From a virus (Duplodnaviria; Heunggongvirae; Uroviricota; Caudoviricetes), in IMG/VR virus record IMGVR_UViG_2519899560_000023: a stretch of DNA of 39,258 nucleotides, one strand, 5' to 3'. Under the pieces are notes generated by a model that was not told the origin of the DNA, made no database searches, and saw only the letters and a list, made by a program, of their open reading frames with translations. The position numbers and the translations under genes are program-made. The stretch's first letter is position 1; every line of letters starts with the position of its first letter. This document shows positions 33,380 through 38,169 of this stretch, one piece after another.

Positions 33380-34372
33380 ACCACAGAAAAGGGTGCTGAA
33401 TGCACCCTCTGAATTATTCCGGTTTTTCCGGCCAGGGAATCGCCTGGTAATGCCCCTCACTGGCAATATCATTAAAGTGCATTTCTTTAAGCTGTCGGAT
33501 ATACGCCATCCAGCGCGTCAGCTGTAATTTATTTTCATCGCTAATCATGTCCAGTTTTAATTCCGTTTTCCAGTCATCCACAGTTTCGTTGGCTTCCTGG
33601 AGCAGCGATGAGCGGCGCTTTTCAGCAACCGTCTTCCAGTTTACCGGCACCTTTGATATCAGGCCATCAGAAAACTGCCAGTTACCGTCAATATTCACAC
33701 CTTCCGGCAGTTCGTCCACTTCAACAACAGTAAAACCTGCCGGATATAAAGCAGAGACATCTTCAGCAACAGAGCAGATAATACCCGTTACAGGCGAAAT
33801 ACAGAGTTTGTATTTCTTTGTGAAAAGCGGGATAGATTCATAAAAATCCCTTCCGTCCTCACTCTGGAAATACTGAACATCCTCACCATAGGGTTTGTGT
33901 TCCGGGTAATATCGTTTTACGTTAATAAGCTCCATTATTTCACCTTGTTTTTGTTGAAAAGACAAAATCATCATATATTTATTCAGATAATCTGTTTTTT
34001 GAACTACTGCACTTTTATGCGCTGGAAGCTGTTTTCCACGAACCATCTATCAGAAACTGAACAGGTCGATAATATGCGGTTACCGTTGCATTACCATCAC
34101 CAGCGACATCAAGCCCTGTAAGTACGCATCCGTCAGGAACCTCAAAAATATTATATTGCATTCCAATCGTTGACCTTGAACCTCTTCGAATGCTTTGAAC
34201 ATAACGTGAGTCAGCCACAGACTGCGTCATCCCCGATGTAATATTTATATCCTGCGTTCCGTCAAATGGGACACCATTAATATTTCTTGGAGTGGCGAGT
34301 TTATTCGCTGCAACAGCCGCTCCGTTCGATGGCAGGGCATTCGCGGCCCTGTTTACAGTATCCCGTAAACCA
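32999..34372. other. invertible tail-fibre segment (G-segment analogue, about 1.4 kb)
   Basis: Bounded by inverted gix-like sites; contains Sv (+), one tail fibre assembly gene (-) and a promoterless alternative S' tip (-); gin adjacent. Confidence 0.7.
33414..33935 (-). CDS. tail fibre assembly protein (U'-like chaperone)
   Basis: ATG at 33933-33935 preceded by AAGGTG; track ORF extends to 34046; about 174 aa. Confidence 0.7.
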   Translation of the reverse strand: MELINVKRYYPEHKPYGEDVQYFQSEDGRDFYESIPLFTKKYKLCISPVTGIICSVAEDVSALYPAGFTVVEVDELPEGVNIDGNWQFSDGLISKVPVNWKTVAEKRRSSLLQEANETVDDWKTELKLDMISDENKLQLTRWMAYIRQLKEMHFNDIASEGHYQAIPWPEKPE

Positions 34373-34439: not shown

Positions 34440-35000
34440 ATGCTGATTGGCTATATACGCGTATCAACAAATGACCAGAACACAGGTTTACAAAGAAATG
34501 CGCTGGAATGTGCAGGATGTGAGCAGATTTTTGAAGATAAAATGAGTGGTAAAACGACACAGCGGCCGGGACTGAAGCGGGCACTGAAGAAACTAAAACC
34601 CGGTGACACACTGATGGTCTGGAAACTGGACAGGCTGGGGCGCAGTATGCGCCACCTTGTTGCGCTGACAGATGAATTACAGCAACAGGGGATAAATTTT
34701 CGTAGTCTTACTGACAACATTGATACGTCAACCCCCATGGGGCGCTTCTTTTTTCACATAATGGGTGCGCTGGCAGAAATGGAGCGTGAATTAATTGTCG
34801 AACGGACACGGGCTGGTCTTGCAGCTGCCCGTGAAAGGGGACGAACCGGCGGCAGACCCCGTCGTCTCACGCAGGAACAATACGAGCAGGTCGGGCGTTT
34901 ACTGGCCGGGGGTGTCAGTCGAAGACAGGTGGCACTTATTTTTGATATCGGCCTTTCAACCCTTTATCGTTATTATCCTGCGAGCGTTTCGGAAAAATAA
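34440..35000 (+). CDS. gin: serine DNA invertase (Gin/Hin/Cin family)
   Basis: 186 aa; N-terminus MLIGYIRVSTNDQNT with catalytic-Ser context; C-terminal HTH; adjacent to invertible segment. Confidence 0.9.
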   Translation: MLIGYIRVSTNDQNTGLQRNALECAGCEQIFEDKMSGKTTQRPGLKRALKKLKPGDTLMVWKLDRLGRSMRHLVALTDELQQQGINFRSLTDNIDTSTPMGRFFFHIMGALAEMERELIVERTRAGLAAARERGRTGGRPRRLTQEQYEQVGRLLAGGVSRRQVALIFDIGLSTLYRYYPASVSEK

Positions 35001-35099: not shown

Positions 35100-37139
35100 A
35101 TGACGTCCAAATGGGTTCAACTATCATCAATGCCCGGAAACTTTACTGTTAAAGTTTCCGGTGGTACAGCGGCATTTCTTGAGGCTCCCTTTCCTCCGGC
35201 CGAAACAAAAGGAGGAATGACATTTGCTGACTGTCTCATCAGTTTTAATACACGGGATTGCCTGTGGGTAAGGCCAGTATCCGGTGATCCGAGTGTGGAA
35301 ATTACCGGAGCGGGTATTGGTGCGGTCATTCCGTTAAGTGCTGATGTTGCCGGTACTGCTGAACCGTCAGACTGGGATAATGCTGAAACACATACCCGTC
35401 CGTCAGGAAATGAAACTGCTTCCAGCTCCCCTTCCTGGTATTACGTGGTGGTTCTTGCTGGTCAGTCAAACGGTATGGCTTACGGTGAAGGTCTGCCACT
35501 GCCGGAGACATATGACCGCCCCGAACCGCGTATTATGCAGTTAGCCCGTCGCAGTACAGTCACGCCGGGAGGTAAAGCCTGTCAGTATAACGACATCATT
35601 CTGGCCGACCACTGTCTGCATGATGTGCAGGATATGAGTGGAAAAAATCACCCGAAAGCGGATGTGGCTAAAGGGCAATATGGCACCGTGGGTCAGGGGC
35701 TTCACATTGCCAAAAAACTGCTGCCGTTTATTCCGGCAGATGCGGGGATTCTGCTGGTTCCCTGCTGCCGTGGTGGTTCTGCATTCACGGCGGGTGCTGA
35801 CGGCACGTACAGTGACAGCACGGGTGCTTCAGAGGACTCAGCCCGCTGGGGTGTGGATAAGCCGCTGTATAAGGACTTAATCAGCCGGACAAAAGCGGCA
35901 CTGGCGAAGAACCCGAAAAACCGCCTGCTTGCTGTGGTGTGGATGCAGGGCGAGTTTGATATTGATGCGAAGCCGACGGAGCATTCCGCGCTGTTTCTGG
36001 CGATGGTGGAAAAATTCCGCGCAGACCTGGCTGAACAGGCGGAACAGTGTACCGGTGGCAGTGCTGCTGGCGTTCCGTGGATTTGTGGCGATACCACGTA
36101 TTTCTGGAAACAGAAAAATGAACCGGCATACCAGGCAATCTATGGCGGCTACAAAAACAAAACAGATAAAAACATTCATTTCGTTCCATTAATGACAGAT
36201 GAAAATGACGCGAATGTACCCACCAACAATCCGGCAGAAGACCCGGATATTGAATCCATTGGTTATTACGGCTCAACGTGGCGTAACAGTGCCGCCACCT
36301 GGACATCTGCGGACCGGGCCAGCCATTTCAGTTCATGGGCACGTCGTGGGATTATTTCCGACCGTCTGGCCACGGCAGTTCTGACTCATGCGGGGCGAAC
36401 CACAGTAAAAGCCGATGTTCCATCTTCTGAAACTGAAGCACCAGTGCCGTCACCTTCAGAAACTGAAGCAGTAACCACAACACTGCTGTCTTATCGTGTC
36501 AGTGAGTCAGAAGGAAATCTGAAAGCCCAGGGCTGGGAGCCGGCTGGCGGTAAAGCTGAAATTATCAGTGATGCAGGAGGCACAGGTGGTAAGGCAATGA
36601 AACTGACCAAGGAAACAGGTAAATCATCCTGGTATCTGGATCATGATGCCGGTACTGGTGCTGAACTGCTGAAAAATGGTGGTTTAATCAGTTGTCGTTT
36701 TAAAGTACCTGGCGACCTGGTGGCAAACCAGTATGTCATGGGGCTTTACTGGCCGGTTTCCTCTCTGCCGCAGGGTGTCACCCTGACAGGGGATGCAGGG
36801 AATAATCTGCTGGCATCGTTCTACATCCAGACAGACGCAAAAGACCTGAATGTGATGTACCACAATGCAAAAGTGGCAACAAATAACCAGAAACTGGGAA
36901 CCTTTGGTGCATTTGATAATGAATGGCATACGCTGGCCTTCCGTTTTGCAGGAAATAACAGCCTTCAGGTTATTCCGGTTATTGATGGTCAGGATGGTGC
37001 CGCGTTTACCCTGACGCAGTCACCAGTAGGAACTTTCCCGGTGGACAAACTCCGCGTAACGGATATCACAAAAAATGCAACTTACCCGGTGCTGATTGAC
37101 AGCATTGTGGTGGAAGTGAAAAAAGCGGTAACAGAATAA
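35100..37139 (+). CDS. SGNH/SASA-family carbohydrate O-acetylesterase-like protein (NanS-p-like) with N- and C-terminal extra domains
   Basis: 679 aa; VVLAGQSNGMAYGEG block, then LLVPCCRGGSAF and VVWMQGEFD blocks and DRASHFS; C-terminal about 230 aa beta-rich. Confidence 0.6.
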   Translation: MTSKWVQLSSMPGNFTVKVSGGTAAFLEAPFPPAETKGGMTFADCLISFNTRDCLWVRPVSGDPSVEITGAGIGAVIPLSADVAGTAEPSDWDNAETHTRPSGNETASSSPSWYYVVVLAGQSNGMAYGEGLPLPETYDRPEPRIMQLARRSTVTPGGKACQYNDIILADHCLHDVQDMSGKNHPKADVAKGQYGTVGQGLHIAKKLLPFIPADAGILLVPCCRGGSAFTAGADGTYSDSTGASEDSARWGVDKPLYKDLISRTKAALAKNPKNRLLAVVWMQGEFDIDAKPTEHSALFLAMVEKFRADLAEQAEQCTGGSAAGVPWICGDTTYFWKQKNEPAYQAIYGGYKNKTDKNIHFVPLMTDENDANVPTNNPAEDPDIESIGYYGSTWRNSAATWTSADRASHFSSWARRGIISDRLATAVLTHAGRTTVKADVPSSETEAPVPSPSETEAVTTTLLSYRVSESEGNLKAQGWEPAGGKAEIISDAGGTGGKAMKLTKETGKSSWYLDHDAGTGAELLKNGGLISCRFKVPGDLVANQYVMGLYWPVSSLPQGVTLTGDAGNNLLASFYIQTDAKDLNVMYHNAKVATNNQKLGTFGAFDNEWHTLAFRFAGNNSLQVIPVIDGQDGAAFTLTQSPVGTFPVDKLRVTDITKNATYPVLIDSIVVEVKKAVTE

Positions 37140-37144
37140 AAAAA

Positions 37145-37173
37145 TCCCGCCGGTCATGATATGGCTGGCGGGA
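37145..37173 (-). terminator. hairpin followed by T-run on minus strand
   Basis: Stem TCCCGCC/GGCGGGA with about 15-nt loop; minus strand continues ATTTTTTTATT. Confidence 0.4.
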
Positions 37174-37188
37174 GCTACCTAACCCATA

Positions 37189-37218
37189 AAGGAAAATAAA
37201 AATACTCCCGAAGGAGTG
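37189..37218 (-). terminator. hairpin with tetraloop and T-run on minus strand
   Basis: Minus strand ACTCC-TTCG-GGAGT followed by ATTTTTATTTTCC. Confidence 0.45.
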
Positions 37219-37285
37219 GTTATCAGTCGCTTCGATGTTTTTACCCGATAACGAATTATGTAGTCAATATCAAAGGTAAGGTTAT

Positions 37286-37468
37286 ATGACATTCGTTCAT
37301 ACAATGCTGCTTTATTTCTGCGCTGTGGTCAGTGCGTTATATCTGGTGAGCGGTGGTTATAAGGTCATCAGAAATTATATTCGCCGTAAAATTGATGATG
37401 CGGCAGCTGAAAAACTCAGTAAAACAGCACAGGCACCGTCATCCCCAAACGACCCGACCCCGCTCTGA
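37286..37468 (+). CDS. small membrane protein (one N-terminal TM helix, hydrophilic tail)
   Basis: 60 aa; MLLYFCAVVSALYLVSGG hydrophobic core; AAGGTAAGG upstream. Confidence 0.5.
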   Translation: MTFVHTMLLYFCAVVSALYLVSGGYKVIRNYIRRKIDDAAAEKLSKTAQAPSSPNDPTPL

Positions 37469-37503
37469 TAACGGGGCAATATACCTGCAAAAGGAGAATA
37501 TTC

Positions 37504-37749
37504 ATGCCAGAGATTAAAGGCACGGTTACTGAAGAGCTTGTCAAACAGGCACTTTATTCTGAAGAAGTGAACCGCGTGCTGAAGGCGCAGGTTCGCAAGG
37601 ATTTTGAGGCACAAATCGACGCATATGTTGATGAAGTGCTGGCCCGAATGGTTGGCCGTTCTCCGGCTGAAAACAGCACGGAAAATGATCCTCAACCCGT
37701 AGAGCAACCAGAGCCGGTTCAGCCCGGAACTGACGGTACTATGATGTAA
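37504..37749 (+). CDS. small acidic helical protein
   Basis: 81 aa; strong SD AAAGGAG 7 nt upstream; followed by terminator. Confidence 0.55.
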   Translation: MPEIKGTVTEELVKQALYSEEVNRVLKAQVRKDFEAQIDAYVDEVLARMVGRSPAENSTENDPQPVEQPEPVQPGTDGTMM

Positions 37750-37758
37750 CAATACCGA

Positions 37759-37790
37759 CCGGCAGGTTTCCCTGCCGGGTGAGTTTGTTA
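37759..37790 (+). terminator. rho-independent terminator after small-protein cassette
   Basis: Stem CCGGCAGG/CCTGCCGG, loop TTTC, then GTGAGTTTGTT. Confidence 0.55.
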
Positions 37791-38066
37791 ATGCACGTTT
37801 TGTGTATTTTCCCTCCTGGGAGAACAGGCAGGACATATCAGCATCCTGAAACAGGAAGCATTTTTGGGTTTGTATGTCTTGCCATTTTGAGATCGAGAAC
37901 GGCGATAGATGAGCTGTAAGGGAGTCTTACAGGCAGGGCAAACAGGCTCTTTCATCCATGATAAAGATCTCCTTTTTATGCATCTCTGCTTTACAGGAGA
38001 CCGGGGAATATCATAGGATACGCCACGAGCTCGAAGTAAAGCATTGATGCAAGTTTTTACAGATTG

Positions 38067-38105
38067 ACCCAGCATAGTTCCAGCTATGCTGGGTTTCACT
38101 TTTAT
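38067..38105 (+). terminator. rho-independent terminator upstream of com/mom control region
   Basis: Perfect 10-bp stem CCCAGCATAG/CTATGCTGGG, 6-nt loop, then TTTCACTTTTATG. Confidence 0.65.
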
Positions 38106-38169
38106 GTAGTATCCTGTTGATTTGAAACATACTACATATACGCGTGATCCTACCTTCACTGTATAAAAA

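Follow-up and report, generated by a model that had tools for sequence, protein, structure and literature searches.

We analyzed a stretch of viral DNA of 39,258 nucleotides (IMG/VR record IMGVR_UViG_2519899560_000023), referred to below in its entirety as the window, which carries the complete gene ECs4993 on its plus strand at positions 35100–37139. The window matches the Mu-like prophage Sp18 of Escherichia coli O157:H7 Sakai at 100% identity, and the gene (100% identity) corresponds to NP_313020.1, located at 5075438–5077477 of NC_002695.2. ECs4993 starts with ATG, encodes 679 amino acids (aa) followed by a stop codon, and probably specifies a sialate O-acetylesterase of the NanS-p type. 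In the Sakai annotation it is a 'hypothetical protein', and Sp18 is described as a 'Mu-like phage'. Among the matches listed, such proteins bear the PGAP label 'DUF6645 domain-containing protein' in 25 other RefSeq genomes, and the label 'sialate O-acetylesterase' is also in use for them in RefSeq and protein databases; no NCBIfam model was found for the ECs4993 protein.

Domain architecture of the ECs4993 protein

An earlier note on this DNA had called an open reading frame (ORF) of 679 aa and proposed an esterase with extra domains at both ends. The ORF matched exactly in its coordinates, plus strand and ATG start, and both extra domains are present: a lectin-like DUF6645 domain at the C-terminus and a beta-barrel, which we call the head, at the N-terminus. 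The protein consists of five parts, namely the head (aa 1–78), linker 1 (aa 79–111), the esterase domain (aa 112–430), linker 2 (aa 431–458), and the lectin-like domain (aa 459–679). A match to PHROG 143 spans aa 62–677. In the alignment with NanS-p of the Shiga toxin (Stx) 2 phage 1717, homology begins only near aa 112, and DNA similarity to Stx phages begins at about position 35445 of the window. No signal peptide was found, and the translation, read by eye, contains no hydrophobic stretch in aa 1–30.

The start codon is annotated inconsistently (35100–35132), as many RefSeq entries begin at Met11 and give a protein of 669 aa. Residues 1–10 are kept in an allele with 61% identity, and P0007, a relative with 30% identity, has no Met at the position equivalent to Met11. 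Both observations favor Met1, which is more likely than Met11 to be the true start. Some alleles at loci L012 and L014–L016 have an in-frame upstream extension (MNI-MTSKW).

The esterase domain (35433–36389) is of the SGNH type II/SASA class and resembles NanS. It matched E. coli NanS (YjhS; PDB 3PT5) over aa 104–428 against chain residues 11–331 (E = 1.9e-118, about 65% identity) and Pfam SASA (PF03629) over aa 116–312, scoring 46.0 bits where the cut-off is 24.8; its identity to NanS-p of Stx2 phage 1717 is 82%. Block I, GQSN (aa 121–124; 35460–35471), contains Gln122 of the oxyanion hole and the nucleophile Ser123, which align with Gln18 and Ser19 of NanS. A Gly-rich block, CCRGGSAF, lies at aa 222–229 and a WMQGE block at aa 281–285. 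In the His block, DRASHFS (aa 405–411; 36312–36332), the catalytic base His409 (nucleotides 36324–36326) aligns with His301 of NanS. A Ser19–His301 dyad that functions without Asp, with Gln18 in the oxyanion hole, has been reported for NanS (PMC9063846, citing Rangarajan 2011), and the 'RASH' version of the His block has been described for NanS-p (PMC10462455). GQSN and RxSHFS are kept in 26 of the 29 full-length Mu-type ORFs. All three of the blocks named in the earlier note (GQSN, Gly-rich and His-like) were found in this way, and the SGNH/SASA assignment that it had proposed to check by profile search lies far above chance, with both Pfam and 3PT5. The likeness to prophage NanS-p proteins that it had suggested likewise holds for the esterase domain, for the lectin-like domain (about 80% identity), and for the catalytic residues, which are intact.

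The lectin-like jelly-roll domain (DUF6645; 36474–37136), presumably a carbohydrate-binding module, matched the C-terminal domain of NanS-p (PDB 6YP6) over aa 459–674 (E = 1e-111) and Pfam PF20350 over aa 524–642 (E = 2.4e-69). Its identity to NanS-p proteins is 78–80%, and 78% to NanS-p of Stx2 phage 1717. Four aromatic residues of vb_24B_21 (Y510, Y515, Y540, and F611) have been proposed as carbohydrate binders (PMC10462455); all are kept in ECs4993, as Y545, Y550, Y575, and F646.

Linker 1 (35334–35432) is acidic and predicted to be disordered, with a predicted local distance difference test (pLDDT) score below 50 for aa 81–115. It carries an SSP motif at aa 109–111 and has a weak match to phrog_9498, which is also found in other NanS-p linkers. 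Linker 2 (36390–36473) is rich in Ser, Thr, Glu, and Pro; it carries PSPS, not SSP, and its identity among alleles is only 11–39%. The protein P0044 has natural in-frame deletions in both linkers, in each case bounded by short repeats: these are GAG...AG in the first linker and SETEA...SETEA in the second. Variation in linker length is tolerated.

A beta-barrel head in place of DUF1737

Among 1555 homologues with precomputed Pfam assignments, PF08410 (DUF1737) is present in the lambdoid-type proteins of about 640–650 aa and absent from the Mu-type proteins of 669–692 aa. DUF1737 was among the domains that the earlier note had named for checking, but PF08410 matched neither the full protein (E ≤ 1) nor aa 1–112 (E ≤ 10). 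The absence of a Pfam match, the lack of alignment with the head of NanS-p from phage 1717, and an all-beta fold rule out DUF1737 as the N-terminal domain. DUF1737 is composed of one helix and three strands (bioRxiv 10.64898/2026.04.10.717836), and the two folds therefore differ.

The structure of the head (35100–35333) was predicted by AlphaFold2 from a seven-sequence alignment, because the single-sequence model was uninformative (pLDDT 44). The alignment-based model has a pLDDT of 80–88 for aa 1–78, which form a compact, cupin-like barrel built entirely of beta strands, with a disordered linker behind it. The sequence of the head contains no histidine, so the domain is not a metal-binding cupin. 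In BFVD, the model matched small (about 85–95 aa) uncharacterized phage proteins with probability 1.0, TM scores of about 0.6, and E values of at least 4.8e-3. These matches comprise dozens of stand-alone, unannotated proteins from cyanophages and from Rhizobium, Pantoea, and Pseudomonas phages. There is also a weak match between aa 3–68 and PHROG 4772, a family of 79 aa (E = 0.006). The head may belong to a wider, unrecognized family of small phage beta-barrel proteins.

Sequence relatives of the head are few. An exhaustive HMMER search with aa 1–76 against 1.84 billion representative proteins gave only four matches: a fragment of the ECs4993 protein, two frames of an allele with 63% identity, and P0007, in which a head with 30% identity is followed by a Pro/Thr-rich linker and then by the start of a GQSN esterase. 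When the head was compared by tblastn with 50,697 GenBank phage records, it was found only in two Stx phages with an inserted Mu-like phage. A metagenome scan returned the same two E. coli allele groups only; word-indexed searches yielded only fragments, and two scans of genome contigs yielded no match. A hidden Markov model of the head found no second match within the window or in the divergent locus L004.

Scans with an alignment of the head recovered 34 viral contigs and 17 metagenome contigs. The head was seen only in Mu-like contexts, at 51 loci and at L004. The ratio of nonsynonymous to synonymous substitution (dN/dS) in the head is 0.05–0.10 for close alleles; a comparison of the two allele groups gives a dN of 0.27 and a saturated dS. 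The head is a separate domain under purifying selection.

Location of the gene between gin and com/mom

The host phage is Mu-like and not lambdoid: the window encodes MuA, MuB, Mu-type tail and baseplate proteins, an invertible tail-fibre segment, a Gin-type invertase, Com, and Mom. Among the 34 viral-contig loci, in all of which the gene sits between gin and com/mom, every one with long enough flanks shows the gene order baseplate J, gp48, fibre, tail-fibre assembly, gin, the head–esterase–lectin gene, DUF1378, DUF826, ORF154 (on the minus strand), com, and mom. The left border of the inserted block is formed by the gene for the Gin-type DNA invertase (34440–35000, plus strand; Resolvase and HTH_7 domains), and the right border by com and mom (38322–39258, plus strand; PF10122 Com, PF25680 Mom, and the Sakai annotation), in which com (38322–38567) overlaps the start of mom (38521–39258). 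Phage Mu has only 95 bp from gin to com and no esterase gene, indicating that the block of about 3.3 kb is an insertion characteristic of the Sp18-like lineage. In a few group 2 loci, most of gin has been lost and the esterase gene is kept. The prophage that carries P0007 is Mu-like but far more distant, with identities of 30% for baseplate J and 67% for gin; P0007 is again encoded just 3' of the invertase gene.

Two small genes follow ECs4993 on the plus strand. The first (37286–37468) encodes a DUF1378 protein of 60 aa with a hydrophobic N-terminus (PF07125, E = 1.2e-38; phrog_494); it is syntenic in all Mu-type loci and also lies 3' of nanS-p in Stx2 phage 1717, and a DUF1378 gene accompanying nanS-p has been noted for Stx phages (PMC10462455). 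The second (37504–37749), part of the same cassette, encodes a DUF826 protein of 81 aa (PF05696, E = 2.8e-15; phrog_311). Since DUF1378 and DUF826 genes are also found 3' of lambdoid nanS-p, the cassette is common to both phage types. ORF154, on the minus strand, encodes a Cys-rich protein of 154 aa with two CPAC motifs, a match to phrog_26524, and no Pfam match. DUF1378, DUF826, and ORF154 (all within 37286–38252) are kept in most Mu-type loci. In PADLOC, neither the esterase nor DUF1378, DUF826, or ORF154 matched an anti-phage defence system.

The intergenic regions have features of their own. An alignment revealed a conserved motif, tgaatt..cgcaaaa, upstream of ECs4993. Right after its stop codon (37140–37233) are two GC-rich hairpins, cccgcc..ggcggg at about 37148–37172 and ACTCCCGAAGGAGT at 37204–37217. 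Their T-runs are on the minus strand, so both resemble terminators for transcription arriving from the right, although the next two genes 3' of them are on the plus strand. Five GATC sites clustered upstream of com (38143–38325) resemble the Dam-controlled region of the Mu mom operon.

The tail-fibre assembly gene (33414–34230) is on the minus strand in the window and on the plus strand in L012, L013, L016, L025, L030, and L033, indicating that both orientations of the Gin-invertible host-range segment occur naturally. Few parts of these phages vary as much as the fibre and assembly proteins (55–100% identity). ECs4993 lies directly 3' of this host-range inversion module, a position that would suit an enzyme acting on receptors. 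The esterase would then de-O-acetylate bacterial surface polysaccharides, such as O-antigen or O-acetylated polysialic acid capsules, and the benefit would lie in adsorption, in avoiding re-adsorption to lysed cells, or in excluding competitors, rather than in feeding the host. Such a possibility has been raised for NanS-p (PMC8065619), and aa 210–311 have a weak match (E = 4.4e-5) to PHROG 25867 ('tail protein'). However, the gene is outside the invertible segment, and its product lacks a tail-fibre or tailspike attachment domain. Moreover, the catalytic domain shares 65% identity with NanS, which belongs to the nan regulon and is specific for sialic acid, and the NanS-p proteins characterized so far act on free and mucin-bound sialic acids (PMC8065619). 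We regard receptor modification as improbable.

Prevalence, mosaicism, and selection

The gene region was found at a coverage of at least 80% in 166 of 5426 complete E. coli genomes, and 151 of these 166 carriers have it at an identity of at least 99%. Serotypes O157:H7, O26, O103, and O145 are represented among the carrier strains. Two Stx-converting phage genomes of about 93 kb, LC727895.1 (locus L001) and LC727881.1, have each received a whole Sp18-like Mu phage by transposition, and a target duplication of 4 bp is annotated. A composite Stx/Mu element of this kind brings the lambdoid-type and Mu-type esterase contexts together.

The heads fall into two groups that are 61% identical to each other. 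Compared with the window, the group 1 loci L012 and L014–L016 are 97–99% identical in the head, 67–69% in the esterase domain, and only 38–46% in the lectin-like domain. In addition, the esterase domain of the window is nearer to NanS-p of Stx phages (82%) than to the Mu-type esterase of group 2 (69%). These contrasts in identity between domains indicate that the esterase and lectin modules recombine across phage types. No locus examined has the head outside a Mu-like phage.

The contig AASMET010000054.1 of GCA_012426925.1 (locus L057) has a gene at 608–2539 that encodes P0073. Here a DUF1737 head and a lambdoid-type 5' part of the esterase, with lambdoid DNA upstream, are fused to a 3' part that does not differ from that of the window gene; next come the right end of Mu (DUF1378, DUF826, ORF154, com, and mom) and then the host gene fliF. 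We set P0073 aside as proof of head exchange, because the junction is near the end of a draft contig, with 607 bp upstream, and may be chimeric. It is either a real lambdoid/Mu recombinant or a chimera of short-read assembly.

Some copies of the gene are decaying. Truncated products are encoded at L008 (523 aa), L020 (499 aa), and L035 (318 aa), and P0004 and P0006 are frameshifted fragments. Together with the inconsistent annotation of the start codon, these copies could suggest that ECs4993 is a passenger left by recombination, with a meaningless read-through as its N-terminal extension and a product without function. Nevertheless, most copies are intact at 679–693 aa, and dN/dS is low not only in the head but also in the esterase and lectin domains (0.09–0.25). 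The head model is confident, and the distant Mu-like phage of P0007 has retained a head, at 30% identity, fused to a GQSN esterase. The data on selection and conservation largely refute the idea of a relic, to which we assign a very small probability.

Predicted function

Carried by a prophage, ECs4993 is predicted to be a functional carbohydrate (sialate) O-acetylesterase of NanS-p type, a reading to which we give a probability of roughly 0.8. The assignment of NanS/NanS-p activity is based on the 65–82% identity of the catalytic domain and on catalytic and binding residues that have stayed intact. Esterase activity is established for NanS and for several NanS-p alleles (PMC8065619, PMC9063846), and NanS-p enzymes permit growth on the 9-O-acetylated sialic acid Neu5,9Ac2 and de-O-acetylate mucin glycans (reviewed in PMC8065619). 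We infer the substrate, the release route, and the host benefit from these characterized proteins.

By analogy, the Ser123–His409 dyad would carry out catalysis, Gln122 together with a backbone Gly would make up the oxyanion hole, and O-acetyl groups would be removed from 9-O-acetylated and probably also from multiply O-acetylated sialic acids. The jelly-roll lectin domain would steer the enzyme to sialoglycans such as mucin. As the protein has no signal peptide, it would be released through phage lysis or with the virion. The enzyme would meet its substrate when Sp18 lyses part of the population, and possibly also as a virion passenger; Sp18 is predicted to be intact, and its spontaneous induction and efficient DNA packaging have been reported (PMC2669165). 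De-O-acetylated Neu5,9Ac2 would then become usable by surviving lysogens via the nan pathway. As for its origin, the gene belongs to the esterase–DUF1378–DUF826 cassette, common with lambdoid prophages, and has a fixed place between gin and com/mom in a Mu-like lineage of E. coli and Shigella, where a lineage-specific barrel head stands in for the DUF1737 head.

Several points weigh against this function. The Sakai genome has four other nanS-p-like places, and the contribution of ECs4993 could therefore be redundant. In a scan for sigma-70-like promoters, matches were no commoner than in shuffled sequence and none upstream of the gene was convincing, and a pattern scan detected no plus-strand terminator-like site between gin and ECs4993. 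The literature searched contains no mention of ECs4993. Finally, its specificity could differ from Neu5,9Ac2 and be directed, for example, at O-acetylated bacterial polysaccharides.

NanS-p esterases let E. coli strains that make Shiga toxin (STEC) feed on the O-acetylated sialic acids of gut mucus, and the copy number of nanS-p accordingly matters for colonization. The enzyme itself is not new, and ECs4993 is ordinary in its enzyme and sugar-binding parts. A link between Mu-like phages and NanS-p was not found in the literature searched, and a 2023 survey of NanS-p diversity dealt with Stx phages only (PMC10462455). The NanS-p family extends beyond lambdoid and Stx prophages, as a Mu-like transposable lineage has its own allele, and the esterase and lectin modules swap between genes of the lambdoid and Mu types, with the head remaining particular to each type of phage. 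The swapped head and the Mu context amount to a modest but testable addition.

A possible role of the head in particle anchoring

The role of the head may be considered in light of phage phi24B, in which gp84 (NanS-p) is a virion protein: a DUF1737 hexamer binds capsid hexons, and cleavage within linkers that contain SSP detaches the enzyme part (bioRxiv 10.64898/2026.04.10.717836). By analogy with the capsid-bound DUF1737 of gp84, the ECs4993 head might anchor the protein to the Mu-type particle, at capsid hexons or the tail, and so display the esterase on the virion; we put this forward tentatively. The head has the same position as DUF1737, in front of a disordered, SSP-containing linker. 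Its confinement to the Mu-like loci, with absence from all other GenBank phage records, and the purifying selection acting on it point in the same direction. At L012 and L014–L016 a nearly identical head is joined to very different esterase and lectin modules, and this constancy fits a phage-specific adaptor with exchangeable cargo. Moreover, the nearest structural matches in BFVD are small stand-alone phage proteins.

On the other hand, these fold matches are weak, and we know of no Mu decoration protein (none was searched for). Two phage groups with about 93% identity in their baseplate proteins diverge by 39% in the head, which thus is not just following the structural genes. An additional carbohydrate-binding or oligomerization module is an equally plausible role for a small beta-barrel. 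Weighing both sides, we consider it possible, though doubtful, that the barrel is a previously unrecognized anchor for a mucin-directed esterase on Mu-type particles and the counterpart of DUF1737. Such a mucin-binding and de-O-acetylating module, carried by the virion at least for a time, might also aid the phage in holding on to or moving through mucus, an unlikely but conceivable benefit that is compatible with the esterase function proposed above. As a more general and equally tentative picture, esterases of the NanS-p kind might be modular, combining a phage-specific anchoring head with exchangeable enzyme and lectin cargo.

If the head is indeed an anchor, the phi24B finding of virion-displayed 'metabolic' enzymes would be generalized by a second, unrelated anchoring module, and the virion display of mucus-active enzymes would have arisen independently in unrelated phage morphotypes. 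If it is not, the gene would simply be another redundant copy of nanS-p.

Comparison with known esterases

ECs4993 and the E. coli enzyme NanS (YjhS, 3PT5) have in common the SGNH type II fold, the GQSN and RxSH blocks, and a Ser–His dyad that lacks a catalytic Asp. NanS, encoded chromosomally in the nanCMS operon, has a single domain, whereas ECs4993 is phage-borne and adds a head, two linkers, and a lectin domain.

The known NanS-p proteins (933Wp42/z1466, Stx2 phage 1717 gp44, and vb_24B_21, which is phi24B gp84 and the source of the C-terminal domain in 6YP6) follow the same plan of head, SASA esterase, and DUF6645. Like ECs4993, the lambdoid/Stx genes are prophage-borne in STEC and have DUF1378 and DUF826 genes on their 3' side, an arrangement that is frequent but not universal. 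Their head, however, is the capsid-binding DUF1737, in contrast to the unrelated all-beta barrel of about 78 aa in ECs4993. The locations also differ: lambdoid nanS-p lies between stx/Q and the lysis genes (S), whereas ECs4993, in a Mu-like transposable myophage, is flanked by gin and com/mom.

With phi24B gp84, ECs4993 shares the domain order, flexible linkers, and an SSP motif, which in ECs4993 lies in linker 1. The two differ in the binding domain, in the phage family, and in the particle, which for phi24B has a T=9 podovirus capsid; gp84 is part of its virion, and ECs4993 would be a candidate for such a place. Taken together, ECs4993 is a NanS-p in predicted function and in two of its three domains, and departs from the known members in its head and in lying outside a lambdoid late region.

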